From an uncultured Pelagibacteraceae bacterium (GTDB lineage Bacteria; Pseudomonadota; Alphaproteobacteria; Pelagibacterales; Pelagibacteraceae): a stretch of DNA of 64,000 nucleotides. The stretch spans positions 40,835 to 104,834 of the forward strand of contig CAJQRF010000011.1 in assembly GCA_905612235.1 (NCBI GenBank), given 5' to 3'. Within the stretch, counting starts at the first letter, position 1. Every line of letters starts with the position of its first letter. Position numbers and translations under genes: made by a program. Of this stretch, positions 2,240 through 35,376 are shown piece by piece. The notes under the pieces are model-generated. The model searched no databases and was not told the DNA's origin. It worked only from the letters and a program-made list of their open reading frames with translations.

Positions 2240-4117
2240 ATGACATCATCTTTAGGAAATTTTTCTCTCTGGGTAACTTTGTTTTTTTCTATTTCCCAAT
2301 TTTTCTTTTCAAGAAAAAAAAATCAATTAAAATTTGTTACAATTAGTGCTAATGGATTGTTCATCGCATCATTTATATCTTTTTTTTTGTTGATGTACGC
2401 TCATGTAATTTCAGATTTTAGCTTAGTAAATGTTTTCCAAAACTCACATACTACAAAACCTTTAATCTATAAAATTTCTGGTGTCTGGGGAAATCACGAA
2501 GGTTCAATGTTATTATGGATACTTGTTTTGACCTTGTTTAACTTTTTTATATATAAGTTATATAATGATAAAAATTCCACTTTTATTTTTAAAACCTTGG
2601 AAATCCAATCACTTATCACAACAGGCTTTATAGTATTTACAATTTTTACGTCCAACCCATTTAAAAAAATGATTTCGGTTGCAGAAAATGGATTGGGCTT
2701 TAATCCTATATTACAAGACCCCGCTTTAGCTATTCACCCACCTCTTCTATATATTGGTTATGTTGGTTTCTCTGCTGCTTTTTCTATGAGTGTCGCTACT
2801 TTATCTTTAAATAAAAATGAAAGTTTTTATTGGTATAATTATATGAAGCCCTTTGTGCTGGCGGCTTGGACTTTTCTTTCAATTGGCATAGCTCTAGGTT
2901 CTTTGTGGGCATACTATGAACTGGGCTGGGGTGGTTGGTGGTTTTGGGATCCAGTTGAGAACGCTTCTTTCATGCCTTGGTTATTAGGTACCGCATTGTT
3001 GCACTCGCTTATTATTGCTGACAAAAGAAGATCACTTCAAGCTTGGGTTTTGTTGCTAGCAATACTTACTTTTCTTTTAAGTGTAATAGGTACATTCCTT
3101 GTCAGATCTGGAATATTAACTAGTGTTCATACGTTTGCTTTAGATCCTTCAAGAGGAATATATATTCTAGTATTTACAGCTCTTTTGGGAGGATACTCTT
3201 TAATACTGTTTGCCTCTAAATCAAAAATATATTTTAGTAATAATTATTTCTCTTTTTTTAGCAAAGAGGGAGCAATACTAATTAATAACATTTTTATGGT
3301 CGTTATTTGCTCAACAGTTTTTTTAGGAACAATCTATCCATTGCTAATAGAAGCTCTCACAGACAACAAAATTTCTGTTGGAGAGCCTTATTACAATTCA
3401 ACAGTAGTTCCTATTATATTGCCAGCAATTCTGATCATGGGTGTGGGTCCGCTCTTATCTTGGGAAAAAGAAAATATTTCAAAAGTAATTAAAAAAATAT
3501 TACCTAGTGCTATTTTTACATTGATGCTTTCAGTATTATTTTTTTCTATATATAAAATCTATAGCCTTATTGCCATAGCAGGTGTTTCTTTAGCTTTTTG
3601 GATAATTACTAATAATTTAATTATTATTTATAAAAAAAGATTTAACTATTCGATTGGGATGATTATTTCACATTTAGGTGTTGGGTTATTAATATTAGGT
3701 GTAACAGGATCAAGTGTTTGGCAAATAGAAAAAATTTCAAAAATGAAAATTAATGATGAAATCAAAATTAATAATTATAATATAATATTCAAAAAAATCA
3801 GTGAAATTAAAGGACCTAACTATTTGGCATTAAAAGGAAGCTTTTTTGTCTACAATAGTAAAAAAAAACTTATCACAACACTAAATCCAGAAAACCGATT
3901 TTATCCAATAACAGGAAATTTTACGTCAGAAGCATCAATACATACTAATATATCAAGAGACCTATATATTGTTCTAGGCAAGGGAAACATAAATAATGGC
4001 TGGACAGTAAGAGTTTATTATAACCCTCTTGTTATTTGGATTTGGATTGGAGCTTTAATAATATTTTTAGGTGGAATTGCATCCACGGTTCAAAATATAA
4101 AAAAAATACCAAAATGA
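2240..4117 (+). CDS. ccmF: cytochrome c-type biogenesis protein CcmF (heme lyase subunit)
   Basis: 625 aa polytopic protein with the WWD motif WGGWWFWDPVENASFMPWL. Confidence 0.92.
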   Translation: MTSSLGNFSLWVTLFFSISQFFFSRKKNQLKFVTISANGLFIASFISFFLLMYAHVISDFSLVNVFQNSHTTKPLIYKISGVWGNHEGSMLLWILVLTLFNFFIYKLYNDKNSTFIFKTLEIQSLITTGFIVFTIFTSNPFKKMISVAENGLGFNPILQDPALAIHPPLLYIGYVGFSAAFSMSVATLSLNKNESFYWYNYMKPFVLAAWTFLSIGIALGSLWAYYELGWGGWWFWDPVENASFMPWLLGTALLHSLIIADKRRSLQAWVLLLAILTFLLSVIGTFLVRSGILTSVHTFALDPSRGIYILVFTALLGGYSLILFASKSKIYFSNNYFSFFSKEGAILINNIFMVVICSTVFLGTIYPLLIEALTDNKISVGEPYYNSTVVPIILPAILIMGVGPLLSWEKENISKVIKKILPSAIFTLMLSVLFFSIYKIYSLIAIAGVSLAFWIITNNLIIIYKKRFNYSIGMIISHLGVGLLILGVTGSSVWQIEKISKMKINDEIKINNYNIIFKKISEIKGPNYLALKGSFFVYNSKKKLITTLNPENRFYPITGNFTSEASIHTNISRDLYIVLGKGNINNGWTVRVYYNPLVIWIWIGALIIFLGGIASTVQNIKKIPK

Positions 4118-4647: not shown

Positions 4648-5054
4648 TTAAAAATAAATTTTTTATAATATTTTCTTTTTTTTTATTCCAAACTTTCTTA
4701 ACTAATATCGGAGCTGTAGAGCCTGATGAAGTTTTGAAAAATAATGCACAAGAATTAAGAGCTCGGAATATTTCTAAAAATATAAGATGTATGGTTTGCC
4801 AAAATCAATCTATTGATGAATCAGAGGCCCCTCTTGCTAAAGATTTGCGCATTTTAATTAGAAATAAAATTAAAAGTGGAAAAGATGACAAGGAAATTTA
4901 TAATTTTTTAACAAGTAGGTATGGAGATTTTATTCTTTTGCAACCTGCTTTTAAATTAAATACTTTTGCTCTTTGGTTGCTTCCAGTGTTTTTTTTGTTA
5001 ATAGGTGTCTATGTAATTTTTAGACAAAATAAGCTATTTAAGAGAAAATCTTAA
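4644..5054 (+). CDS. ccmH: cytochrome c-type biogenesis protein CcmH
   Basis: Signal peptide, then the CMVCQNQSIDES (CxxC) CcmH/CycL signature and a C-terminal TM; start overlaps the ccmG stop. Confidence 0.85.
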   Translation: MIKNKFFIIFSFFLFQTFLTNIGAVEPDEVLKNNAQELRARNISKNIRCMVCQNQSIDESEAPLAKDLRILIRNKIKSGKDDKEIYNFLTSRYGDFILLQPAFKLNTFALWLLPVFFLLIGVYVIFRQNKLFKRKS

Positions 5055-5059
5055 AATAT

Positions 5060-5770
5060 TTAATTATTTTTATTTTTTTTATTTACTTTAATTTTAATTA
5101 TTTCAACCTTGTATCTCATTAAAAAAATTATTAATGAGTATATTATCATTGCTGAAAGCATTATAACCAAAGGTACTAACATGGTGTTGTGTATTGTTGG
5201 GGCTGAAGTGAGAGTTATGCTAGATGGTTGATGAAGTGTATTCCACCAATCTACTGAATATTTTATAACTGGTAAATTAAATAATCCAATAATTCCAATT
5301 ACTGATGTTAATTTATTTGCCTCTTCAAAGTTTTTTACATAATTCCATAAAAAGATATAAGTAAGGTAAAAGAAAAACAAAACTAACATAGATGTTAATC
5401 TAGCATCCCAAACCCACCAGACGCCCCATGTTGGTTTTCCCCATAATGATCCTGTAATAATAGAAATCAATGCAAAAATACATCCAATTGGCGCAATGCT
5501 TTTTGCCATTAAAGAAACAAATTTTATTTTAAAAACTAAATTTAATATTGAGGCTATTCCAATAAATCCAAAAAAACCAAGTGATAAAATTGAAGCTGGC
5601 ACATGAACATACATTATTCTGACTGAGTCACCTTGAATGTAATCTGGGGGAGATAAAAATAATGCATATATTAATCCTATTATGATTATTAAAAGCATTA
5701 GAAATACTAAATTATTAATTAACTTATTATTTGATGAAAGAATTCTTTTGGGTAAAAAAAATTTAAGCAT
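5060..5770 (-). CDS. ccmC: heme exporter protein CcmC
   Basis: 236 aa membrane protein with the WWD motif WGVWWVWDARLTS. Confidence 0.9.
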   Translation of the reverse strand: MLKFFLPKRILSSNNKLINNLVFLMLLIIIIGLIYALFLSPPDYIQGDSVRIMYVHVPASILSLGFFGFIGIASILNLVFKIKFVSLMAKSIAPIGCIFALISIITGSLWGKPTWGVWWVWDARLTSMLVLFFFYLTYIFLWNYVKNFEEANKLTSVIGIIGLFNLPVIKYSVDWWNTLHQPSSITLTSAPTIHNTMLVPLVIMLSAMIIYSLIIFLMRYKVEIIKIKVNKKNKNN

Positions 5771-5818
5771 TTTTTAATATTACATTTATAGGTGTATTGT
5801 TAAATACATTTTTTAAAA

Positions 5819-6238
5819 TTATTTTTCTAGTGCTTCGCTAACTTCAGGTGGCATATAGTTTTCATCATGTTTTGCTAAAATTTTTTCTGCTATAAAGTAT
5901 TTTTTATCTTTTAATTTACCTTCGGCTATAACTCCTTTACCTTCTGAGAACAGATTAGGTAAAAGCCCATTATAATTTACAATTATCTCATTTTTTAAAT
6001 CAGTAATAATAAAATTTATCGACTCATCATTTTTAATAAATGAATTATCTTTAACAAGACCCCCTATTCTTATTTTTTTATTTAAAGAAATATTTTGTTT
6101 ATTTTTAATTTCCGTAGGAGAAAAAAAATAAACTAAATTTTCTTCTAAAGATCTAAATATAAAAGTAATGATGATGATTGAAATTATTACAAATGACACC
6201 AAGAATAACATTCTCGATTTTACTTTATTACCAAACAT
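5819..6238 (-). CDS. ccmE: heme chaperone CcmE
   Basis: N-terminal anchor, OB-fold-sized body and a heme-binding [13 protein letters not shown]-terminal motif. Confidence 0.85.
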
Positions 6239-6264
6239 TTAATATTTTTAACTAATTAGATTTT

Positions 6265-6480
6265 TTAAAAAATTGGACTTTTGGATAAAGACTTTCTTAA
6301 ATCAAAGTCTTCAATTTTAACATCTTGATTTTGTTGGTATTCATTTAAATATAACTTCTCATATTTTTTAAATTTTTTATATGTTTTTGCGTATAAAACA
6401 AAACAACTAAAAAAAGTAAAAATAAACGCTGGCCAAACAAATTGACCATAACCATTTAAAAATAAAAATTCTAAGTCCAT
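6265..6480 (-). CDS. ccmD: heme exporter protein CcmD-like small membrane protein
   Basis: 71 aa, single TM, NGYGQFVWPAF resembles the CcmD GGYxxFVW motif; directly upstream of ccmE. Confidence 0.55.
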   Translation of the reverse strand: MDLEFLFLNGYGQFVWPAFIFTFFSCFVLYAKTYKKFKKYEKLYLNEYQQNQDVKIEDFDLRKSLSKSPIF

Positions 6481-6637
6481 CTAAAATGACTATCCTAAAG
6501 ATTGTATAAAAATACAAGAGTTAAATTGTCCCTAAAACTCCATTAAATTACTTAGACATTTTGCCGTCTATGTAACTATTGAATTATAGCATATTTTAAT
6601 ACTTATAAATGTTGATAAAATTAATCACACTTAAAAT

Positions 6638-7822
6638 ATGAATTTTCAAAAAAAAAATACTAATTTTGACATTGTTATTGTAGGAGGTGGCCCTATAGGA
6701 ATAGCTTTCGCTTGCGGATTAGCAAATACTACAATTAAAATAGCTATTGTGGACAAGCTATCAAAATATGCAATATCAAATCCTAAAGTAGATGGAAGAG
6801 AAATTGCATTAACTCAACATTCATTAAAAATTTTAGAAAAACTAAATGTTTGGAATTACGTTCCTAAAAAATTAATATCTACGATTAAAGAAGCTCGTGT
6901 ATTAGATGGTAATTCCAAGTATTTTTTAAATTTTGCTCACAGCGAAATTAAAAAAGAATGTTTGGGTTATATTGTTCCAAATTATTTAATAAGAAAAAGT
7001 CTTTTTAAAAGGGTAAAAAATCTTAAAAATGTAACTTTAATAAATAATAGCGAATGCTTAGCAGTAAATATTTCTAAAAAGTACGCTACACTTAAAATGT
7101 CCAATAAAAAAAATATTAAAACTTCTTTAGTTGTCGCTGCTGACAGTCGTTTTTCTAAAATGCGTTCAAAAATGGGAATTGCTGCATTTACACGTAATTT
7201 TGATAAAAACATGATTGTTTGTAGAATGAGACACGGAAAATCTCATAAAAATATAGCTTATGAATTTTTTCGTTATAATCAAACACAAGCATCATTGCCA
7301 TATATTAAAAATCAATCTGGTATAGTAACAACAGCAACTAAAGATCTGACTGAAGTTTTAATGAAAATGAACAAAAAACAATTTAATAAAGAGATGGAAA
7401 ATAATTTTGATAGTTCTTTTGGAAAAATGGAACTTGTAGGCAAGCGCTACTCTTATCCTATGATCACAACTTATGCTAAAAAATTTATAGCACATCGGTT
7501 TGCTCTAATAGGTGATGCTGCTGTTGGAATGCATCCTGTAACTGCTCATGGATTTAATTTAGGTTTAAAAGGATTGGATATATTAAATACTGAAATTAAA
7601 AAAGCTTTAAAAAACAAAACTGATATTGGTATTATAGATGCTCTTAAAAATTACCAAACTAAGCTACATCGTGCTGCTGCACCTGTATACTTAGCAACCA
7701 ATGGAATAATTAATCTTTATACATCTAATATTTTGCCAGCCAAAATCACTAGGCAATTTATACTAAGATTTGTTAATATTGTAAAACCAATTAAACAAAC
7801 ATTTTTAAACATATTAAAATAA
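6638..7822 (+). CDS. FAD-dependent monooxygenase, UbiH/UbiF/Coq6 family (ubiquinone biosynthesis hydroxylase)
   Basis: VIVGGGPIG dinucleotide fold and the GDAAVGMHPVTAHGFNLG family signature. Confidence 0.75.
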   Translation: MNFQKKNTNFDIVIVGGGPIGIAFACGLANTTIKIAIVDKLSKYAISNPKVDGREIALTQHSLKILEKLNVWNYVPKKLISTIKEARVLDGNSKYFLNFAHSEIKKECLGYIVPNYLIRKSLFKRVKNLKNVTLINNSECLAVNISKKYATLKMSNKKNIKTSLVVAADSRFSKMRSKMGIAAFTRNFDKNMIVCRMRHGKSHKNIAYEFFRYNQTQASLPYIKNQSGIVTTATKDLTEVLMKMNKKQFNKEMENNFDSSFGKMELVGKRYSYPMITTYAKKFIAHRFALIGDAAVGMHPVTAHGFNLGLKGLDILNTEIKKALKNKTDIGIIDALKNYQTKLHRAAAPVYLATNGIINLYTSNILPAKITRQFILRFVNIVKPIKQTFLNILK

Positions 7823-7825
7823 TAT

Positions 7826-8830
7826 TCAAATTAACAAAATAATTTTTGGGGCTGCACATGTCCCTTCGTGTATTCGTTTAAAGGCTGATGATCCATCTTT
7901 TAATTTTCTATATTCAATCCAATCAAGTTTTCCTATTTTATTTTCTGCTAAAATGATTAAAGTTTTTTCAAAATCTTTATTTGTATAGCAATAAGTTCCA
8001 ATAAATGTAACTTCCTGGAGCGTTGCTTTTCTAAAATCAAAGCTTCCACTAGGTTGAGTAAGACCAATGTGAATAATGACCCCACCTGGTTTTATTGATT
8101 GCATGGCTTGTTTTCTAGTAACCTCCATACCAACTGTGTCAAAAACTAAATCAAAATGATCATTGACTACACTCTTGCTTTCTGGTTTTGCAGGTATTGC
8201 ATCTAAATATTTAGAGCATTCTGCTAATCTTTTTTCGTTCGGCTCGACAATTACTATTTCTTTACAATTTTTTACTTTAGATAAAATTAACCCACTGAGC
8301 AATCCAATTGCTCCACCTCCTATAACTAAAACTTTTGCATTTTTTAATGACTTTGAAAGTTCCTTTTCACCAAGTTCAACTGCGTGTAATGCTACTGCTG
8401 TAGGTTCTGCTATAGGCGCTTCTTTTATTTCTAAATTTTTTGGTAATTCGTATATATTTTTATCTGGAATAGAAACATATTCGGCAAAACCACCTTGTCT
8501 TTCGATGGGTCGATTCATGCCTAAAATAATTCTTTTTTCACATAAATGTTCTCTGCCGCTTGAGCAGTACTCGCATGCACCACAGGTAATTAAAGGATTT
8601 AGAATAACTTTTTTACCAGAAAATTTACCCTTGTCTATTGTGCCACTTATTTCATGCCCCAATATCAATGGTGGAATTCTTCTGTTATCTTTTCCATGAT
8701 AAGCATGCATATCTGAACCACAGATACCTGAGGCAAAAACTTTTACTATACTTTCTTTGTTTATAATTTTAGGATTTTTTTCTTCTCTGTAAATTAATTC
8801 TTGTGTGCCAGTATAAACAAGAGCTTGCAT
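7826..8830 (-). CDS. zinc-dependent medium-chain alcohol/polyol dehydrogenase
   Basis: GICGSDMH, GHEISGT, structural-zinc cysteines (CGACEYC) and a GGGAIGLL Rossmann motif. Confidence 0.8.
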   Translation of the reverse strand: MQALVYTGTQELIYREEKNPKIINKESIVKVFASGICGSDMHAYHGKDNRRIPPLILGHEISGTIDKGKFSGKKVILNPLITCGACEYCSSGREHLCEKRIILGMNRPIERQGGFAEYVSIPDKNIYELPKNLEIKEAPIAEPTAVALHAVELGEKELSKSLKNAKVLVIGGGAIGLLSGLILSKVKNCKEIVIVEPNEKRLAECSKYLDAIPAKPESKSVVNDHFDLVFDTVGMEVTRKQAMQSIKPGGVIIHIGLTQPSGSFDFRKATLQEVTFIGTYCYTNKDFEKTLIILAENKIGKLDWIEYRKLKDGSSAFKRIHEGTCAAPKIILLI

Positions 8831-8832
8831 AA

Positions 8833-10119
8833 TTATTTTGAATGACCGTACTTTTTCAATCTTATGTCAGCTGTTCTTGCGTGAGCTTCCATTCCTTCAG
8901 CTCTTGCTAGTCTTGCCGCTGTAGCTCCTACCACTTTATTAGCATCCCTGCTCATTCTTTGGAATGTTAATGTTTTAATAAATTTCCCAACAAATAAGCC
9001 TCCTGTATATCTTCCTCCACCTTTTGTAGGCAAGATATGATTTGTACCAGAGCACTTATCTCCATATGCTACTGTTGTTTCTTCTCCTAAAAATAGCGAT
9101 CCATAATTTCTTAATCTCTTGAGCCACCAATCAAGATTTTCCGCATGAACTTCCAAATGTTCAGATGCATATTTGTCACTTACTATAGCCATCTCTTCGT
9201 TTGAATCACAAAGCACTACTTCACCATAATCTTTCCAAGCTGCTTCAGCGCTTATTCTTGGGAGTTCCGGTAATTCTTTTATTAATTCAGGAATTCGTTT
9301 TATTACGTAGTCAGCAACAGATTTATCTGTTGTAAATAACCAGCCGGGAGAATTGTAACCATGTTCTGCTTGGCCCACTATATCAACCGCCACTATTTCT
9401 TTGTCAGCAGACTTGTCGGCTATAATTGCAATTTCTGTTGGGCCAGCAAACTGATCTATTCCAACTTTTCCATAAACTATTCTTTTAGCTTCAGCTACAT
9501 ATTGATTACCTGCGCCAACTAAAAAATCGACTGGTGGGTTATTAAAACATCCATATGTCATTGAAGCTATTGCGGCTATGCCACCCAAATTTAAAATGAC
9601 ATCCGCACCGCAAAGATTGGCAGCGTAGATAATTCCAGCGTTAGCGCCATTTACATCTTTTGGAGGGCTTGCACAAATTATAGTTTTAACACCCGCAACC
9701 TTAGCTGGAGTAATTGCCATTACTGCTGAAGAAATATGAGCATAACGACCACCTGGGATATAACAGCCAGCTGTATCAACGGGTATAAGTCTTTGCCCTG
9801 CATATAAACCATCTGAAAGCTCAACCTCAAAATTATTATTCATGCTTTTAAGCTGATGTTCAGCAAATTTTCTTACTCTCTCGTGAGCAAACTGCACGTC
9901 ATCTTTTGTTTTTTGACTTACTTTTTTTGAAGCTTCTTCAATTTTTTCTTTAGAAACTATTACCTCACCTTCATAATTATCAAATTTTTTTGTTACTTCT
10001 TTAATGGCTTCTTCTCTTCTTTTTTCAATATCATTAAGAATATTTTGAACTATTTCCCTTGTTTTGTTATCATCTGTGGATGGATTTTTAATTGCTTTTT
10101 TTAAATATTTTATAGCCAT
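8833..10119 (-). CDS. histidinol dehydrogenase family protein (HisD or HpsN-like sulfopropanediol 3-dehydrogenase)
   Basis: 428 aa with QAEH and SEHLEVH HisD-family motifs. Not in a his operon context; 3 nt from the Zn-ADH gene. Confidence 0.8.
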   Translation of the reverse strand: MAIKYLKKAIKNPSTDDNKTREIVQNILNDIEKRREEAIKEVTKKFDNYEGEVIVSKEKIEEASKKVSQKTKDDVQFAHERVRKFAEHQLKSMNNNFEVELSDGLYAGQRLIPVDTAGCYIPGGRYAHISSAVMAITPAKVAGVKTIICASPPKDVNGANAGIIYAANLCGADVILNLGGIAAIASMTYGCFNNPPVDFLVGAGNQYVAEAKRIVYGKVGIDQFAGPTEIAIIADKSADKEIVAVDIVGQAEHGYNSPGWLFTTDKSVADYVIKRIPELIKELPELPRISAEAAWKDYGEVVLCDSNEEMAIVSDKYASEHLEVHAENLDWWLKRLRNYGSLFLGEETTVAYGDKCSGTNHILPTKGGGRYTGGLFVGKFIKTLTFQRMSRDANKVVGATAARLARAEGMEAHARTADIRLKKYGHSK

Positions 10120-10184
10120 AATTCACCTCTAAATATGATTTGTTATGAAATTTTTTTTATTTTAATATATAAATATTTTATTCT

Positions 10185-11090
10185 ATGAAAAACAAATATC
10201 CAAGAAATATGATTGGTTATGGGTCAAAAACTCCTACTATAAAATGGCCAAATAACTCAAAATTAGCTCTTCAAATAGTTTTAAATTATGAAGAGGGTTC
10301 AGAGAGCTGTGTTTTGCATGGAGATGGACATTCAGAAACTTTTTTATCAGAAATGGTTGGGGCTTTGCCTGTAAAAGGAAGACATATAAATATGGAATCG
10401 TTTTATGAATATGGTTCTCGTAGAGGTTTTTGGAGAATTCATGAAATGTTTCAAGAAAAAAAAATACCTTTAACTATTTTTGGTGTGGGGATGGCGTTAG
10501 AAAGAAATCAAAAAATATGTAATGCAATAAAAGAAGCTAACTATGAAGTAGCATCACATGGATGGAAATGGATTGATTATCAAAATGTATCAAAAGCTAA
10601 CGAAAAAAAACATATGGGTCTAGCAATAAAATCTATTAAAAAAATATTTGGTCAAAGACCTTTAGGTTGGTACACCGGCAGGTGTAGTTCAAATACAAGA
10701 GATTTAGTAATGGAAGAAGGTGGTTTCCTTTATGATAGCGATTCATACAGCGATGATCTTCCTTACTGGGAAGTTCGAGGTAAAAAGAAACAATTAATTA
10801 TCCCATATACGTTAGATAATAATGATATGAAGTTTGCTACCAGTCAAGGATTTAATAATGGTGATCAATTTTACACTTACTTGAAAGATAGTTTTGATAC
10901 CCTTTATAATGAAGGACAAACAAAACCCAAAATGATGTCTGTAGGATTACATTGTCGCTTAATAGGAAGGCCTGGAAGAATACAATCTTTAAAAAAGTTC
11001 CTTGATTATGTTCTAAAACATGACGATGTTTGGATCTGCAAACGCATAGACATTGCTCATCACTGGATAAAAAATTACTCAAATATTTAA
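10185..11090 (+). CDS. puuE: PuuE-type allantoinase (polysaccharide deacetylase fold)
   Basis: 301 aa; LQIVLNYEEGSESCVLHGD is very close to the PuuE signature; followed by allantoicase. Confidence 0.75.
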   Translation: MKNKYPRNMIGYGSKTPTIKWPNNSKLALQIVLNYEEGSESCVLHGDGHSETFLSEMVGALPVKGRHINMESFYEYGSRRGFWRIHEMFQEKKIPLTIFGVGMALERNQKICNAIKEANYEVASHGWKWIDYQNVSKANEKKHMGLAIKSIKKIFGQRPLGWYTGRCSSNTRDLVMEEGGFLYDSDSYSDDLPYWEVRGKKKQLIIPYTLDNNDMKFATSQGFNNGDQFYTYLKDSFDTLYNEGQTKPKMMSVGLHCRLIGRPGRIQSLKKFLDYVLKHDDVWICKRIDIAHHWIKNYSNI

Positions 11091-11098
11091 ATTTTTTT

Positions 11099-12094
11099 AT
11101 GAAAAAGAATAAATATATTTATACAAATGGATTAATTGATTTAGCTCAATCAAGATTAGGATCAAAAATTGTTTTTAAGACTGATGAATTTTTTGCTCCA
11201 GCTAGTCGAATTATAAACCCACTGCCGCCTGTATTTAAAGAAGGTGTTTTCGACTTACATGGAAAATGGATGGATGGATGGGAAACTAGGAGAAAAAGAA
11301 AAAAAGGCCATGACTATTTAATAATAAAACTTGGAAAACCTGGTAGAGTTTCTAAAGTTAATATTGATACATCCTTTTTTAATGGAAACCAACCAACGCA
11401 AGTTTCTTTAGAAGCATGTTTTAGTAAAAAAAATATTCCATATAAAAAAATAAAGTGGAATAAAATACTAAGCAATAAAAAAATAAAAGCAAATAATCAT
11501 CATTTTTTTAATATAAAAAGCAAAACTATTTATTCTCATATTAAATTAAATATTTTTCCTGATGGGGGTATTGCTAGACTTAGAATTTATGGTTCTATAG
11601 ATAATAATAAAATTAAATTTAAAAAAAAAATGATTAATCTTACTTCAGTTTTAAATGGTGCATCGATAATAGCATGTAACAACGAACACTTTGGTAAAGC
11701 TGAAAATATATTAGCTCCAGGCATGGGGAAAAATATGGGTGATGGATGGGAAACTAGAAGAAGCAGAGGAAAGAATTTTGATTGGCTTATACTAAAATGT
11801 GTCACCGCTGGAAAAGTAAATAAAATTCAGATTGATACCCATCACTTTAAGGGAAATTTTCCAGATGCATGTAGTTTACAAGCTGCTTATATAACAAAGA
11901 ATAATACACCTCAATTAATTGTTCAAAATTCTAATAAATGGAAATTATTATTAAATAAAGTAAAGTTAGGACCTCATCGAAAACATAATTTTCAAAATAC
12001 TTTAATGAAGAATACTAAAATAAATTATGTTAAAATTAATATATTTCCTGATGGTGGCATATCAAGAATAAGATTGTTTGGAAATCCAAAATAA
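11099..12094 (+). CDS. alc: allantoicase
   Basis: Two repeated allantoicase modules, each with DGWETRR. ATG at 11099; the track start at 11030 overlaps puuE and is an extension. Confidence 0.85.
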   Translation: MKKNKYIYTNGLIDLAQSRLGSKIVFKTDEFFAPASRIINPLPPVFKEGVFDLHGKWMDGWETRRKRKKGHDYLIIKLGKPGRVSKVNIDTSFFNGNQPTQVSLEACFSKKNIPYKKIKWNKILSNKKIKANNHHFFNIKSKTIYSHIKLNIFPDGGIARLRIYGSIDNNKIKFKKKMINLTSVLNGASIIACNNEHFGKAENILAPGMGKNMGDGWETRRSRGKNFDWLILKCVTAGKVNKIQIDTHHFKGNFPDACSLQAAYITKNNTPQLIVQNSNKWKLLLNKVKLGPHRKHNFQNTLMKNTKINYVKINIFPDGGISRIRLFGNPK

Positions 12095-12588
12095 TGGAAA
12101 CTATTATAAAACCTGTTAAAGTTACAAAAGATAACTTTTCTGATTTTGGAGACGTAATATCTTCAGAAAATATAAAGCCAATTGATATTAACGCAGGTTA
12201 CGCAAAGAGATTTGATGATCTAGCCAATATTAATACTCTTAAAGGTGAGGGAAAAACTATAGTAAGTATTTTTTCTGCACTAAAAAGAAACTTTCCCATT
12301 GAGATTGATATGATGGAAAAACACCCATTGGGTAGCCAAGCTTTTATTCCAATGATTAAAACAACTTTTTTAGCATTTGTTGCGCCTCAAGGAGATTTGC
12401 CAGAAATTAATAAAATTAAATCTTTTGTTATCCCTCCTTCAAAAGGAATAAATTACAAGCCAGGTATTTGGCATTTTCCTTTAATTTCTACTGAAGATAC
12501 TGATTACCTGGTAATTGATAGAAAAGGAGACGGAGACAACTTAATTATTCATCAATTTAGTAAAGAAAAAATCATTCTTAAATACTAA
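12094..12588 (+). CDS. allA: ureidoglycolate lyase
   Basis: 164 aa, HPLGSQAFIP motif, start overlaps the alc stop (TAATG). Confidence 0.8.
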   Translation: METIIKPVKVTKDNFSDFGDVISSENIKPIDINAGYAKRFDDLANINTLKGEGKTIVSIFSALKRNFPIEIDMMEKHPLGSQAFIPMIKTTFLAFVAPQGDLPEINKIKSFVIPPSKGINYKPGIWHFPLISTEDTDYLVIDRKGDGDNLIIHQFSKEKIILKY

Positions 12589-12715
12589 TACTTCAAATGT
12601 ATTATGGACCGTAAATATAGTTCGGCAACCATAAAACAATTTGTGGAAATACAAATGCACCAACTATAATGATTGCTGAAAAAGCTGCAGACATGATAAT
12701 AGAAGATGACAAATT

Positions 12716-13291
12716 ATGATTGAACAAATAATTATTTTTTTTCAAATAGTTTTTATAGACCTAGTCTTAGCAGGAGATAATGTAATTATTATCGGCATGG
12801 TGGCTTCTAAGTTTGATCTCAAATTAAGAAAAAAAATTATATTTTGGGGTATAGGAGCTGCAATTATCTTAAGAATTATATTTACTTTAATCACCGCATA
12901 TTTGCTTCAAATTAATGGTCTTAAATTTATAGGAGGATTACTACTGCTATATATTTCCTATAAACTTTATAAAGATGTAATTAAAAATAAAACAGAAAAT
13001 GAAGCTAATATTAAAGTTGATAAATCAAGTTTTTTTAAAGCAATTATGACAGTAATTATTGCAGATGTAAGCATGAGTTTAGATAATGTGCTGGGAGTTG
13101 CTGGTGCAGCCAAAGATCATTACATTTTATTAATTTTTGGTTTAATTTTATCTATTATTTTGATGGCTACAGTAGCTAATATTATATCTACATGGATAAA
13201 AAAATATAGATGGATTGGTTGGATAGGATTGTTTGCGATAGTGGTAGTTGCGATAGATTTAATTTATAGTGATTTAAAATTATTTTTATAA
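12716..13291 (+). CDS. TerC/YjbE family integral membrane protein
   Basis: 191 aa, duplicated AGDNVIIIG / [12 protein letters not shown] motifs. Confidence 0.75.
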
Positions 13292-13293
13292 AT

Positions 13294-14061
13294 ATGTATC
13301 TTAAAAAAATAAATTTAAAAAATAAAACTGCCTTAGTTACTGGTGCAGGAAAAGGTATTGGCTTAGCTTGTGCTGTTGCTTTAGCTGAGGCTGGGGCTAA
13401 TTTAATTATCATTAGCAGAACTCAGAAAGATCTAGATAAAGTTGCTAAAATAATAAGAACATTTAAATCTAAATGTGTTTCTTACGCTTGCGATGTTACC
13501 AATTACTCGCAAATAAAAAGCTTCATAAATAAACAAAAAAAAATTGATATTTTGGTAAATAACGCTGGAACTAATATTCCTGAACATTTTACAAAAGTAA
13601 AAAAAAAAAATATGGAATATTTAGTTAAACTTAATACCGTAGCAACTTTTAATATAGCTCAACTATGTACTTTAAAAATGCTTGAATCAAAAAATAGAAA
13701 AAAAATAGGTGGTTCAATTATTAATATGTCTTCTCAAATGGCTCATGTGGGTGGTCCTACCAGAAGTGTTTACAATATGACAAAAGCTGGATTGGAAGGT
13801 TTGACTAAAGGTATGGCGCTTGATTTAGCAAAGAGTAATATTAGAGTCAATACGGTATGCCCAACTTTTATAGTTACTCCTATGACAAAAAAATTTCTTA
13901 AGGATAAAAAATTTAAAGAAACTATGTTAAAAAATATTCCATTAGGGAGATTTGCTCAAACAAGTGATGTGGCTACTACCGTTGCTTTTTTAGCTTCAGA
14001 TGCTTCTTCAATGATAACAGGAACTTCAATACTTATCGATGGTGGTTGGACAGCAATGTAG
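13294..14061 (+). CDS. short-chain dehydrogenase/reductase (SDR)
   Basis: TGAGKGIG cofactor motif and a YNMTK (YxxxK) catalytic motif. Contains an in-frame A12 run at 13599-13610. Confidence 0.85.
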   Translation: MYLKKINLKNKTALVTGAGKGIGLACAVALAEAGANLIIISRTQKDLDKVAKIIRTFKSKCVSYACDVTNYSQIKSFINKQKKIDILVNNAGTNIPEHFTKVKKKNMEYLVKLNTVATFNIAQLCTLKMLESKNRKKIGGSIINMSSQMAHVGGPTRSVYNMTKAGLEGLTKGMALDLAKSNIRVNTVCPTFIVTPMTKKFLKDKKFKETMLKNIPLGRFAQTSDVATTVAFLASDASSMITGTSILIDGGWTAM

Positions 14062-14165
14062 AAAAGAAATTTGTATAGATCTAAGATACTATAATCCAAT
14101 CAAATATAATAATACATAATGATTTAATTTTTGTTAGGAATGATTTTGAAGTATAAGATAATAAT

Positions 14166-14537
14166 ATGAGTAATTTTACAGATGTAAAAGTGTTTATGGA
14201 AACTTTTGGCCAAATGGTAAGAACTAAACCAAATTTTCCAGACGATAAAACTATGCAGCTTAGACTTGATTTAATTAAAGAAGAGTTGAGTGAATTAGAA
14301 GAGGCGATGAAAACTAAAAATCTAAAAGAAATTGCTGATGCTTTAACTGATATTTTGTATGTCACTTATGGTGCGGGATATGCGTATGGCATAGATTTAG
14401 ACCAATGTTTTAAAGAAGTGCAAAGAGCAAATATGAGTAAATTGGGAAAAGATGGAAAACCTATTTATAATGAAAAAGGTAAAGTAATGAAAGGACCTAA
14501 TTATATTGGTCCAAACCTCAAGCCGTTTGTAGAGTGA
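14166..14537 (+). CDS. MazG-like nucleoside triphosphate pyrophosphohydrolase family protein
   Basis: 123 aa all-alpha; EELSELEEA...DALTDILYV resembles the MazG/HisE-like metal-binding helices. Confidence 0.55.
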   Translation: MSNFTDVKVFMETFGQMVRTKPNFPDDKTMQLRLDLIKEELSELEEAMKTKNLKEIADALTDILYVTYGAGYAYGIDLDQCFKEVQRANMSKLGKDGKPIYNEKGKVMKGPNYIGPNLKPFVE

Positions 14538-14884
14538 GCAAAAGAAAAATAACAGACCCATTTAATGTAAAATTTAAACCATTTAATAACTATGGTTCAC
14601 CAATTCCTGGAATGAGTTGGCATAAAATTACTTATAAACAAAAAACAGGACAAGGAACTTATATATTAAAAATGGAACCAGGTGCAAAAAGCAAACTCCA
14701 TAAACATGTAGATTTTGAAGAATTTATTATGCTTGATGGTGATCTGATTGATCCTGACAATAAAACTTTTAAAAAAGGAGACATCGTAACATTCGCGCCA
14801 GGCACTAGTCATTCTTCTTACACAAAAAATGGTTGTTTAATTCTAGTTTTTATGAGAGCTCTTAACAAAGCAATTAACAAATAA
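14534..14884 (+). CDS. cupin domain protein
   Basis: 116 aa; HKHVDFEEFIMLDGDL...PGTSH fits a cupin two-motif pattern. GTG start overlaps the upstream stop. Confidence 0.5.
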   Translation: MSKRKITDPFNVKFKPFNNYGSPIPGMSWHKITYKQKTGQGTYILKMEPGAKSKLHKHVDFEEFIMLDGDLIDPDNKTFKKGDIVTFAPGTSHSSYTKNGCLILVFMRALNKAINK

Positions 14885-14914
14885 AACTAATAAATTTTAA
14901 GGAATTAAATTAGC

Positions 14915-15643
14915 ATGATTGGAATTTTAGGTGGAATGGGAACGCAGGCTGGCCTAGATTTCTGCAATAAGTTAGCAATTTTAAATAGAGGTAAAGTTGA
15001 TCAAAAGTATCCGATCTTCATATTATACAATAAATCAAATATTCCTGGGAGACCTGAAAACTTACACAAATACAACAAAGTATTAAAAAGTTTAATTAAA
15101 GGATGTCTTTTACTTCAAAAAAATAAATGTAAATTTATTGTTATTCCTTGTAACACTGCGCATTATTGGTACGACGATTTACAAAAAAGAATTAGAATCC
15201 CAATAATTAGTATGCCTAAAGAAGTATATCTACACGCTAAAAAAAATTGTAAAAACAATTCTAAAATAGGAATTCTTGCTACTGAAGAAACGTTAAAAAC
15301 TAACGTTTATTATAAGTTTTTTTATAAAAACTTCAGTCTAATAAGTCCAAAAAAATCTTTACAAACTAAAAATGTCAATAAAGCAATTAAATATGTAAAA
15401 ATGGGAAAAATTAAAAATGCAGAACAAATTATAAAGCCCGCTATCAATTATTTAATAAAAATGAAATGTAGCAAAATAATATTAGGATGTACTGAGTTGC
15501 CGATAGCAATTTTTGCATTTAAATCTTTTAAAAAAATAAAGTTATCTAAGATTTTTTTAGACCCTAATTTAATATTAGCCAGTGCTTCAATGAAAAAATA
15601 CAAAAGTTTTCAAGCGAGAGGATTAAAACAAATAAAGAGCTAA
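14915..15643 (+). CDS. aspartate/glutamate racemase family protein
   Basis: Both catalytic-cysteine motifs are present: PCNTAHYW and GCTELP. Confidence 0.8.
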   Translation: MIGILGGMGTQAGLDFCNKLAILNRGKVDQKYPIFILYNKSNIPGRPENLHKYNKVLKSLIKGCLLLQKNKCKFIVIPCNTAHYWYDDLQKRIRIPIISMPKEVYLHAKKNCKNNSKIGILATEETLKTNVYYKFFYKNFSLISPKKSLQTKNVNKAIKYVKMGKIKNAEQIIKPAINYLIKMKCSKIILGCTELPIAIFAFKSFKKIKLSKIFLDPNLILASASMKKYKSFQARGLKQIKS

Positions 15644-32666: not shown

Positions 32667-33749
32667 ATGCACTCTAATAAGTTTTCAAATAAAGTAAAAA
32701 AATATGCTTTAATTTCATTTTTAATTCCATTGTTGACAATAAATTCCTGTCTCTTGCTTTATAAGTTTTTTGGAAATTTGTATGTATATCCTGCTCCAAA
32801 TTTTGACTACAGTAAAAATGAAGTTACGTACAGTTACGATAAATATAAAAATATTTTAAGTGATAATAAATCAAAATCATTTACTAATTGTCCTAAAAAC
32901 TATCTTACTAGAACTTTTGTAACTTATGATGGTATAAGAATTGAAACATTTGATAGAGATGGTCTACCCAGGGGAACCGCTAAAGACAATTATATAGCAA
33001 TCAATAAAATAGAAAAAAATACGCCGGATAAACAAAAAATTAAATCAATTATACTTAAAAAAACTAATATTAAAAATTTCCATTGTGTAAAAAATTATCA
33101 TTTTTTTTACGGATTGTTAGAAAAAGTAAATTTTTTAGAATCATTTTTGTTAAAAACTATCTTATTGAAAGAAAGTTCCTTTGCTAAAGTAAAAAACCCT
33201 TATTTGTATGGTGAGGTATCTATAAGTAGAACGGCCAGATATTTTCCTGCAGTATTTATATTTAAACCATTTATTATTTTAAGCGCTTTTATGCTTCTGT
33301 TATATTGGAAAAGTAATTTAAATTTATTTAATTATATTAAAAATGAAAATAAATTAGATTCGATTTCTAAAAAATTTTTTTATTTTGGTGTTCTTTCTTG
33401 TTTATTTTTAATCTTGCATGCAGTATTATTGGGTGTAGATTATGATTCAAGCATATTTAGGAAAATAAGAAGGTTAATAATAACTCTTTTTATAATTTTT
33501 GAATTAACTTCCCAAGTTTTATTAACAAAAAATATTTTTGATCATAAAAAATATTTAAAAAAATATATAAATCCAACTATTCTTAAAATGAAGATTATTT
33601 TTGTTGTAGTGATGTTTGTTATTACCATAATATCATTTACATTTTTGATTTATGGAGATCCAACAACTACATTCCAAAATGTTTTGGAATGGAATTATTT
33701 TAGTCTGCTTCTTGTTTACTATCTTTTAAGTAGATTGCTCTGGAAATAA
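32667..33749 (+). CDS. hypothetical membrane protein
   Basis: 360 aa; N-terminal signal/anchor, soluble middle, four or five C-terminal TM segments; no family recognised. Confidence 0.55.
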   Translation: MHSNKFSNKVKKYALISFLIPLLTINSCLLLYKFFGNLYVYPAPNFDYSKNEVTYSYDKYKNILSDNKSKSFTNCPKNYLTRTFVTYDGIRIETFDRDGLPRGTAKDNYIAINKIEKNTPDKQKIKSIILKKTNIKNFHCVKNYHFFYGLLEKVNFLESFLLKTILLKESSFAKVKNPYLYGEVSISRTARYFPAVFIFKPFIILSAFMLLLYWKSNLNLFNYIKNENKLDSISKKFFYFGVLSCLFLILHAVLLGVDYDSSIFRKIRRLIITLFIIFELTSQVLLTKNIFDHKKYLKKYINPTILKMKIIFVVVMFVITIISFTFLIYGDPTTTFQNVLEWNYFSLLLVYYLLSRLLWK

Positions 33750-33925
33750 AAACCTGGTCCACACACCCGAAGGTGCATGAACAAAAGTTTTTGGTTCGTC
33801 GTTTTAGGCGCTACCGCCGAACCCGCCACTCCACTTGTTTAGCGCTGCTTAGTGGAGTTTTCTGCCCTATAAGCTTGAACCTTTCGGTTTTTCCTTATCT
33901 GGCCAGTTAAGAGTTGCCTCTTAAG
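33750..33925 (-). ncRNA. unassigned structured small RNA (multi-hairpin, about 170 nt)
   Basis: ORF-free patch, much more GC-rich than its flanks, between convergent genes. Read on the minus strand it forms hairpins capped by GCAA (33914-17), GAAA (33882-85) and UUCG (33768-71), plus a 7-bp hairpin at 33829-57. A closing helix CUGGCC/GG(A)CCAG is followed by U5. Confidence 0.6.
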
Positions 33926-34004
33926 TCAAATACATTTAACCACATTAAAAAAAAAATTAAATCACTATTTAGTTGTTTTATAAGTCTAATAACTAACCTG
34001 TTAA

Positions 34005-35153
34005 CTATGGGGATAAATATTTATTGACAGTACTTGTTATCCAGCCACCACCCAAAACTTTGTCACCAATATTATTTGTTGAATAAAATACACATGCTTG
34101 TCCAGGCGAAATTCCTGCTTCTTCTTCTTCTAATTTTACTTCCGCTTTATTTTGTTTAATTTCAATTTTAGCTTTAATGAATCTTCCTGTGGATCTAACT
34201 TTAATAAATAAATTATTTTTGTAATTTTCAATATTACTTAAAATATTAACGTTTTTCAAAAAAATTTTATTTATCATCAACTCTGATCTTTTTCCTACGA
34301 TAACCTTATTTTCTTTTGCAATAATATTTACTACATACAGTGGTTCATCGTGAGAAATTCCAATTCCTTTTCTTTGACCAATTGTAAAATTAATTATCCC
34401 ATCATGTTTTCCAATAATGTTGTTTTTTGTATCGAAGATATCTCCTGCCATAAAAGATTCAGGCCTATATTTATTGATCACTGAAGCATAATTGCCATTA
34501 GGTACAAAACAAATATCTTGACTATCAGGCTTGTCTGCTACATTTAAATTTAGCTCTGTAGCAATGTTTCTTGTGTTTTTTTTATTTAAAGCACCTAAAG
34601 GAAACCTTAAAAAATTAAGCTGCTCTTGAGTTGTTGCAAAAAGAAAGTAGCTTTGATCTCTTGATATATCAAAAGCCCTATACATTTCTGCTTTACCATT
34701 ATTTTGAATTCTATTAACATAATGGCCTGTCACTAAGGTATCAGCATTTAAATCTTTAGCATAAGAATATAGATCTCTAAATTTTACTGTTTGGTTACAT
34801 GTAACGCATGGTATGGGTGTTTCTCCAGATGCATAACTATCAATAAATGATTCTATAACTTCTTCTCTAAATTTTTTTTGGTAGTATAAAATTTTATGAT
34901 TAATATTTAATTTTTGAGCTACTCTTTTTGCATCCAAAATATCTTGTCCAGCGCAGCATTGTTTTTTAGATTTTGAGGCTTTAGAATCGTCATAAAGCTT
35001 AAGTGTTATTCCCGTGACATCGTACCCTTCTTTTTTCATTAAACCAGCTACAGTAGATGAATCTACGCCACCTGACATAGCTACTACTACTTTTGTATCT
35101 TTAGGTTTCTTTAAAAAACCAAGTGAGTTTGTTTTTTTTTCCATAATGTTCAT
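34005..35153 (-). CDS. mnmA: tRNA-specific 2-thiouridylase
   Basis: PP-loop AMSGGVDSS, conserved cysteines, full MnmA-length pattern. Confidence 0.92.
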
Positions 35154-35199: not shown

Positions 35200-35376
35200 A
35201 TGTTTTTTATTTATGAACCTGGAGATTTTGTAATTAACCCTGATAATAAAGGTTGGGGAATTGGACAAATTCAGTCTATAGTAAAAAATAAAGTTACAGT
35301 CAATTTTGAAAATGTGGGCAAAAAAGTTATAAATAACAAAGAGATTTTATTAGAAAGAATTAAAAAAATTGAATAA
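35200..35376 (+). CDS. DUF3553-like small protein
   Basis: 58 aa, below the track cutoff; EPGDFVINPDNKGWGIGQIQSIVKNKVTVNFENVGKKVI matches the DUF3553 pattern common in alphaproteobacteria. Confidence 0.65.
   Translation: MFFIYEPGDFVINPDNKGWGIGQIQSIVKNKVTVNFENVGKKVINNKEILLERIKKIE

Follow-up and report, generated by a model that had tools for sequence, protein, structure and literature searches.

The RNAs called IMES, for 'identified in marine environmental sequences', are noted for their extreme abundance, and we know of no cultivated host that could have been assigned to them when they were first reported. IMES-2, the family with which we are concerned here, was reportedly first described by Weinberg and co-workers (in Nature, 2009), and IMES RNAs are said to have been seen independently by Shi and co-workers (2009) in metatranscriptomes from Station ALOHA. 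The IMES-2 RNA itself is thus already known and has long had a curated family in Rfam; our search of the literature for 'IMES-2' returned two incidental mentions only and no dedicated study, the original description lying outside the literature searched, and a search of the SAR11 literature yielded no paper naming IMES-2. We describe here a copy of this RNA in 64,000 nucleotides of DNA from an uncultured Pelagibacteraceae bacterium (contig CAJQRF010000011.1; the whole stretch is referred to as the window), where a GC-rich patch constitutes, with high confidence in both the identity of the RNA and the architecture of the gene, an IMES-2 RNA gene that is transcribed on its own from the minus strand of a SAR11-type genome. 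According to the SAR11 papers, SAR11 outnumber all other heterotrophic bacteria of the surface ocean.

A scan of the whole window against Rfam 15 at gathering thresholds returned a single match, the IMES-2 RNA motif (RF02035) at 33931-33791 of the minus strand, with 156.0 bits versus a gathering score of 54.7 and an E-value of 6.3e-41 (cmscan). Model positions 1-141 of 141 are aligned gap-free, with posterior probabilities that are all '*', and a permissive scan of both strands of 33650-34050 revealed no family besides IMES-2 at E<=1. The loop and linker sequences of the family (GGCAAC, GGGCAGAAA, AGYAGCGCUAAA, GGCGGUAGCGC and AACGACG) are all present in the window copy. It shares with the family the same four hairpins, the conserved loops, the marine origin and the extreme abundance in metatranscriptomes, and as a member of IMES-2 it shows no difference from the family. 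An earlier note on this stretch, made from the letters alone, had taken the patch for an RNA of unknown class and had proposed an Infernal/Rfam scan; the full-length 156-bit match supplies the class, and so confident a match makes this a known rather than a novel RNA. The same note had set aside SRP RNA, tmRNA, RNase P RNA and 6S RNA, in agreement with our finding that none of them is matched in Rfam at E<=1.

The gene lies in a gap of 255 nt free of open reading frames (ORFs), spanning 33750-34004 between the ORFs 32667..33749 (+) and 34005..35153 (-), in a window of ~30% GC whose genes are tightly packed. The GC content is 0.45-0.47 over ~33700-33924 versus 0.15-0.33 in the local flanks, the profile of the 64-kb window ranging overall from 0.26 to 0.35; coordinates and profile agree with the earlier description of a GC-rich patch in an ORF-free gap between convergent genes. 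The predicted minus-strand fold has an energy of -65.1 kcal/mol (z = -4.90), which none of 200 shuffled sequences equals, and the plus-strand fold one of -48.3 kcal/mol (z = -1.63), equalled by 12 of 200. The three tetraloops (GCAA at 33917-33914, GAAA at 33885-33882 and UUCG at 33771-33768, all minus strand) and the hairpins CUCCACU/AGUGGAG and GGUUC/GAACC were found where the earlier note had placed them. Its proposal of a discrete structured non-coding RNA, encoded on the minus strand and equipped with its own terminator, is likewise borne out by the fold z-scores, by the G-U pairs and by a terminator, all of which point to that strand; at one position of P4, for example, 10 U-G pairs would be mismatches on the opposite strand.

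Comparison of related sequences indicates that the IMES-2 fold is a row of four hairpins, P1 to P4, followed by a terminator hairpin (Table 1). In an alignment of 31 distinct IMES-2 copies, in which the Rfam helices were scored together with a helix between the loops L3 and L4 (see below), the helices are paired in 93.6% of cells, versus 33-39% when partners are slid by 1-3 columns, and 25 of the 45 pairs exhibit double changes, versus 16.0 +/- 1.8 in shuffled alignments (none of 500 shuffles reaches 25). The check for compensatory changes proposed in the earlier note, made here on related copies with mnmA-downstream spacers included, has revealed covariation. Within P2, double changes occur in 7 of 11 lower and 2 of 4 upper pairs. 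Homologues keep the GCAA loop, the second GNRA loop, internal loop, linkers and helix lengths unchanged, and the stem lengths of P3 and P4 are constant, whereas P2 tolerates an apical insertion of 11 nt (in the loci L122 and L123). GNRA loops, an internal loop and fixed linkers are characteristic features of RNAs that adopt a tertiary fold. One helix of the earlier note did not survive: the proposed closing helix CUGGCC (33906-33901) / GG(A)CCAG (33760-33753) is paired in 68.6% of cells in a second alignment (17 homologous sequences, 3' flank included), the same as in shuffles, and shows no compensatory change. CUGGCC instead forms the base of P2 and GGACCAG belongs to the terminator stem, and both of those helices covary. 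An alternative 3-bp hairpin within L4 (GCG/CGC), put forward by RNAalifold, was also rejected, the corresponding positions reading AAG/UAC in the clade with GUAC-type loops that is described below.

These structural data also bear on the idea that the element is a divergent housekeeping RNA (6S, SRP, RNase P or tmRNA) or, alternatively, a coding or antisense feature identical with the 45-aa ORF at 33773..33910 (+). Such an origin could be argued from an abundance like that of 6S RNA or tmRNA and from the overlap of the mechanically called ORF with the RNA; in addition to the exclusive Rfam match to IMES-2 at E<=1, however, the fold is a row of hairpins and not a single long bulged duplex, and the insertions of 1 nt and 11 nt, along with the compensatory stem changes, would be intolerable to a conserved reading frame. 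We rejected the ORF as coding because of these indels among homologues, and consider either version of the idea extremely improbable.

Table 1. Features of the IMES-2 locus in window coordinates; promoter-region elements and loop contacts are as predicted from sequence.
Feature	Position	Strand	Remark
IMES-2 core, model positions 1-141	33791..33931	-	cmscan, RF02035
P1 hairpin, UUAAGAG-GCAA-CUCUUAA, GNRA loop 33917-33914	33907..33924	-	100% of cells paired (31 sequences), 2/7 pairs double-changed
P2 long hairpin, base CUG-CC/GG-CAG, internal loop GAAA/CAAG, apical GNRA loop GAAA 33885-33882	33862..33906	-	
P3 hairpin, 8 bp, 15-nt loop L3 (AAGCAGCGCUAAACA)	33828..33858	-	8/8 pairs covary
P4 hairpin, 9 positions including one constant G.A, 13-nt loop L4 (GUAGCGCCUAAAA)	33793..33823	-	4/9 pairs double-changed
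L3 segment GCGCUA	33840..33845	-	model positions 87-92; complementary to 33813-33808
L4 segment UAGCGC	33808..33813	-	model positions 119-124; proposed partner of the L3 segment
Intrinsic terminator: hairpin 33782-33757, UUCG loop, U-run 33752-33744	33744..33782	-	terminator scan
Predicted extended -10 element TGG-TTAAAT (TGGTTAAAT)	33934..33942	-	spacing to P1 kept in most related loci
Conserved upstream element AACAAC-N5-AGTGAT	33961..33977	-	contexts (i) and (ii)
DnaA-box-like motif TTATCCCCA	34008..34016	-	overlaps last codons and stop of mnmA

The assignment of IMES-2 to SAR11 hosts is consistent with its distribution. A DNA pattern drawn from both conserved loops matched at least 120 genome contigs; among the matches listed, 14 carry the labels Pelagibacteraceae, Pelagibacterales or Ca. 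Pelagibacter, and all 14 of these SAR11 loci contain a full-length IMES-2 scoring 147-164 bits. Among the same matches listed, the other 106 contigs, from other phyla, yielded no IMES-2 with nhmmer and were discarded as chance matches of a loose pattern. IMES-2 was found in the mnmA-downstream spacer of every contig that contains a close relative of the window's MnmA and enough sequence, and 12 further loci of this kind, when rescored with Rfam, gave 122-148 bits. Close relatives of the window MnmA number in the thousands and come from Tara and other marine metagenomes; a peptide-pattern search of the genome contigs with this protein and an exact-sequence look-up of it each returned no match. 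A scan of metagenome contigs detected three loci only (L121-L123), all of a more divergent form. In this subtype, represented by L122 576-728 (+), L123 654-806 (-) and L121, which the contig end truncates, a different upstream region contains a CTTGGATCAAG palindrome; in L122 and L123 the apical GNRA loop of P2 is swapped for a helix longer by 11 nt with a GAAG cap, and UAGCGCU is present in both large loops.

The IMES-2 gene is independent of its neighbours, being located in three unrelated neighbourhoods. These are (i) inositol monophosphatase (IMPase), DUF3553 and mnmA upstream of the RNA, with a convergent gene for a hypothetical protein behind it (the window, L021, L082 and L124-L159), (ii) a tyrosine recombinase and/or a DUF2938 gene, the RNA, and a 91-aa ogt-like gene (12 SAR11 loci), and (iii) an epoxide hydrolase and an 83-aa ORF, then the RNA, with a convergent Dak2 gene (L123). 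In the window, Pfam domains PF03054, PF20259 and PF20258 identify the upstream gene as that of MnmA, the tRNA 2-thiouridylase. The 91-aa gene of context (ii), found at 2648-2923 (+) in L024 and in equivalent form in 11 other SAR11 loci, encodes solely the DNA-binding domain of O6-methylguanine-DNA methyltransferase (MGMT; PF01035) with its PCHR motif, and starts 6-10 nt past the IMES-2 terminator, which leaves no space for a promoter of its own; its expression may depend on read-through of the terminator.

The boundaries of the transcription unit were placed by conserved signals on either side of the core. Downstream, a terminator hairpin with an 11-bp stem, a UUCG loop and a U-run was detected on the minus strand only (the scan found 3 terminator-like sites versus 0.2 expected). 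It lies outside the Rfam model, which stops at P4; its position is kept in 15 SAR11 loci, and in the 17-sequence alignment 8 of 12 stem pairs are double-changed and 96% of cells are paired. Upstream, an element of the TGnTAnnnT type is present at a fixed distance before P1 in all three gene contexts, from which we infer an extended -10 promoter with a putative start near 33927, some 2-3 nt ahead of P1. To read TTATCCCCAC as a promoter of the sigma-32 type was rejected, there being no conserved -35 partner across contexts. Further upstream, 22 of the 29 distinct upstream regions compared share the sequence A[AT]AGTGAT, located at roughly -36 to -39 relative to model position 1; the longer element AACAAC-N5-AGTGAT lies ~30-50 nt upstream of the predicted start, too distant from the -10 element for a normal -35, and may be a regulator-binding site. 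Finally, TTATCCMCA occurs just once in the 64-kb window, as TTATCCCCA, and 26 of the 29 upstream regions contain TT[AT]TC[CA][CA]C[AG] in the same orientation, 74-88 nt before model position 1. About half of these regions, mainly of mnmA-context loci, contain the exact TTATCCACA, which we take from the textbook consensus to be a DnaA box; a DnaA-box-like 9-mer is thus located upstream of IMES-2 in two unrelated contexts, (i) and (ii) (e.g., in L015, L021, L024, L082 and L124-L159).

IMES-2 sequence was recovered from 18 marine or seawater metatranscriptome runs. Judged by word depth in contigs, which is a rough measure and pools several lineages, coverage over ~33794-33914 amounts to 5,000-15,000 (run X3), up to 8,759 (X7) and up to 3,519 (X5), but only to ~40 or less at 33782-33788 and ~15 or less beyond 33922 (zero in two of four runs), with 0-5 for the flanking genes. 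In these contigs the RNA is some three orders of magnitude more abundant than the mRNAs of its neighbours. Only 3-10% of the aligned contig material runs on into unlike sequence, so that the contigs mostly end at the core boundaries. In five runs, and in fixed orientation, the P5-side adapter CACGACGCTCTTCCGATCT precedes 33785-33798 and the read-1 read-through adapter AGATCGGAAGAGCACA follows 33912-33918; if the libraries are assumed to be stranded by the dUTP method, read 1 is antisense and the RNA is encoded on the minus strand.

The primary transcript is predicted to extend over ~183 nt, from ~33927 to ~33745. As the terminator hairpin is ~100-fold under-represented, the abundant species appears to be trimmed at its 3' end just after P4, near 33790-33794, and the mature form thus likely lacks the terminator hairpin. 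Of the 160-180 nt transcript envisaged in the earlier note, the predicted primary transcript is a reasonable counterpart, whereas the abundant metatranscriptome species covers only ~33794-33918. Several points weigh against so precise a picture: the promoter and the start site stand as predictions; the transcript ends are taken from assembled, unstranded contigs of mixed lineage; and the apparent 5' boundary at 33912-33918 falls inside P1, which calls for a technical explanation. The loss of the first 8-14 nt during second-strand synthesis would fit such a boundary for a start near 33927.

Taken together, context and expression allow one to weigh the proposal that IMES-2 is a cis-regulatory leader, i.e., a riboswitch or attenuator whose terminator governs read-through into a downstream gene. 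It has some appeal for the 12 SAR11 loci of context (ii), where the start codon of the 91-aa gene is found a few nt past the U-run without promoter space and where the order aptamer, terminator, gene would be a classical riboswitch layout. However, the gene behind the RNA runs towards it in the window, in L123 and in all loci of the mnmA context, so that a general cis-regulatory role is impossible; no downstream gene family is held in common, a co-oriented gene being confined to the ogt context; and it is the terminated RNA that builds up to extreme levels. The convergent contexts have thus largely refuted the leader hypothesis, and we regard it as very unlikely.

Beyond the Rfam model, and along with the conserved terminator, the conserved promoter region and the assignment to a SAR11 host, the comparison revealed covariation between the loops of P3 and P4. 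The segments GCGCUA of L3 and UAGCGC of L4 are perfect complements of 6 nt (predicted duplex energy -8.0 kcal/mol), and this complementarity is retained in 22 of 31 sequences. When scored as a helix, L3-L4 is paired in 95.2% of cells, and two of its six pairs are changed on both sides in 5 of 31 sequences: L139, L145, L148, L149 and L158 combine an L3 GUACUA with an L4 UAGUAC, two central pairs, C-G/G-C, being replaced by U-A/A-U with complementarity kept. The MnmA proteins of these five loci belong to four different sequence clusters, and the P3 and P4 stems of this GUAC clade are wholly different in sequence and are still paired. In the other 26 sequences the four central positions are invariant, which is by itself uninformative. 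Most likely, L3 and L4 form a kissing helix, as is suggested by these compensatory changes; the constant lengths of P3 and P4, versus the elastic P2, fit two hairpins packed side by side. The purine riboswitches offer a parallel, likewise featuring two adjacent, matched hairpins of invariant length with loops that are complementary in the Watson-Crick sense; the likeness is one of architecture only, IMES-2 having neither a conserved downstream gene nor a known ligand nor a three-way junction with a binding pocket. Metatranscriptome contigs of the runs X5, X7 and X15 often carry C88>U (33844 G>A) in L3, at 9.5-33% of depth, which converts the segment to GUAGUGCUA, and among loose contig ends one lineage has an L4 with GUAGCAUC. 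If linked, L3 GUAGUGCUA and L4 GUAGCAUC would be a second compensatory event, and a non-palindromic one.

A number of observations limit the support that covariation gives to the kissing helix. Its first pair is G-U in L159, a G.A is present in L127, the terminal A-U pair is lost to U.U in 8 sequences, the covariation amounts to a single clade-level event, and the old and the new loop cores (AGCGCU and AGUACU) are both palindromic; the covariation of L3 and L4 would be explained equally well by intermolecular pairing or by a concerted change of two identical protein sites. The first of these could take the form of RNA-only homo-oligomers, in which the self-complementary cores AGCGCU/AGUACU kiss between molecules (L3-L4' plus L4-L3', or L3-L3'). 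Consistently, the L3 core is a perfect palindrome in 31 of 31 sequences, also after the change from GCGC to GUAC, L4 carries the 6-nt palindrome as well in the GUAC clade and in L122/L123, and a very high cellular abundance would favour intermolecular association. The majority-type L4 (UAGCGC followed by A or C), however, has a palindrome of 4 nt only, the equal and invariant lengths of P3 and P4 with their linker of 3-5 nt suit an intramolecular side-by-side layout, the RNA is small (~135 nt), and covariation is blind to the distinction between intra- and intermolecular pairing. The ornate RNAs GOLLD, ROOL and OLE are roughly 600 nt or more in size, versus ~135-183 nt for IMES-2. Like IMES-2 they are orphan structured bacterial RNAs from comparative genomics, and they are reported to form homo-oligomers by kissing-loop assembly (PMC12286853), which is a precedent. 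The self-complementary loops of IMES-2 could likewise mediate kissing contacts. With regard to the same comparison, a search of the viral contigs and of GenBank phages yielded no IMES-2. On balance we assign only a small probability to homo-oligomers and retain the intramolecular L3-L4 contact as the most likely one.

What, then, might IMES-2 do? In the scheme that we favour, transcription would be started near 33927 by the extended -10 promoter and the conserved upstream elements, and the transcript would pass through P1-P4 and end at the UUCG hairpin and U-run near 33745, at a length of ~183 nt. The L3-L4 kissing helix would then lock two hairpins of equal length side by side, and this contact together with two GNRA loops and A-rich linkers suggests a compact fold; the terminator hairpin would be trimmed off to leave an abundant species ending just past P4, and the resulting stable, structured RNA might act in trans by binding or scaffolding an abundant protein. 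A pattern of conservation like that of RNAs with a defined tertiary fold, the abundance and the absence of a conserved neighbour lead us to suggest, as a best guess, that IMES-2 serves in trans to scaffold an abundant protein or as its decoy, a speculative view that we would not rate as probable. It has to be held against it that none of the contexts examined contains a conserved neighbouring gene hinting at a protein partner. Among abundant, stable, free-standing non-coding RNAs, 6S RNA and the CsrB/RsmZ-type RNAs are comparable with IMES-2, the CsrB type also for its repeated loop motif; IMES-2 differs in lacking the long duplex with central bubble of 6S RNA, the GGA motifs and any Rfam match to these RNAs. 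The likeness is a speculation on function and implies no membership.

The conserved loops could instead serve as seeds for mRNAs, GUAGCGCUAAA in L3 and GUAGCGC in L4, which would make IMES-2 a trans-acting, base-pairing small RNA. A free-standing, terminated and highly expressed layout is common among bacterial regulatory small RNAs, and IMES-2 has just this layout, with its own terminator and high expression, in addition to two hairpin loops of nearly identical conserved sequence. Its conservation reaches beyond any seed, however, to GNRA loops, internal loop, linkers and helix lengths that are all fixed; L3 and L4 are complementary to each other and have changed together, and are thus probably engaged already; the window shows no excess of TAGCGC (10 sites versus 6.4 +/- 2.9 expected, two of the ten being the RNA itself); and the abundance is far above the needs of a catalytic antisense regulator. 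A base-pairing role hence appears to us unlikely. Possible resemblances of GUAGCGC to 5S rRNA or to sequences of the tRNA D-arm carry no weight in our reading.

Several further features of the surroundings deserve mention. The convergent 360-aa protein (32667-33749, +) has no Pfam family; its relatives vary widely, the genes called at the same position encoding 155-368 aa, and in L021 and L082 the identity of ~40% is confined to its C-terminal half. At 33670-33691, still within the 3' end of the ORF, a perfect palindrome of 9 bp encloses a loop of 4 nt (CATTCCAAAATGTTTTGGAATG), and the scan rated this site terminator-like on both strands. A 58-aa ORF at 35200-35376 (+), between mnmA and the inositol monophosphatase gene, occupies the position of DUF3553 in all related contigs. 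In the ogt context, a 317-aa tyrosine recombinase is encoded 0.35-0.9 kb upstream of IMES-2 (L024 667-1620, -; L079 4480-5433, +; L062 5751-6704, +), with Phage_integrase confirmed by Pfam in L024 only. A replication origin or terminus at the gap was considered and dismissed, the GC-skew profile of the 64 kb having no switch at this place.

IMES-2 matters as an orphan that is among the most abundant transcripts of marine metatranscriptomes. To the curated family the present analysis adds the SAR11 host clade, the full transcription unit comprising predicted promoter, core and terminator, and the independence from neighbouring genes, as well as the rejection of a closing helix, a suggested 3' maturation and the proposal of a specific tertiary contact between L3 and L4. 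These additions make the biology of IMES-2 directly testable, for example by mutation of the L3-L4 contact. It is finally tempting to consider, albeit as a rather improbable combination, that a kissing-locked IMES-2, be the contact intra- or intermolecular, has its transcription tied to DnaA via the TTATCCACA-type box ~80 nt upstream. If true, the bacteria that are most numerous in the ocean would possess in IMES-2 an abundant global regulator or scaffold linked to the cell cycle, which would partly offset the sparse protein regulators of SAR11.

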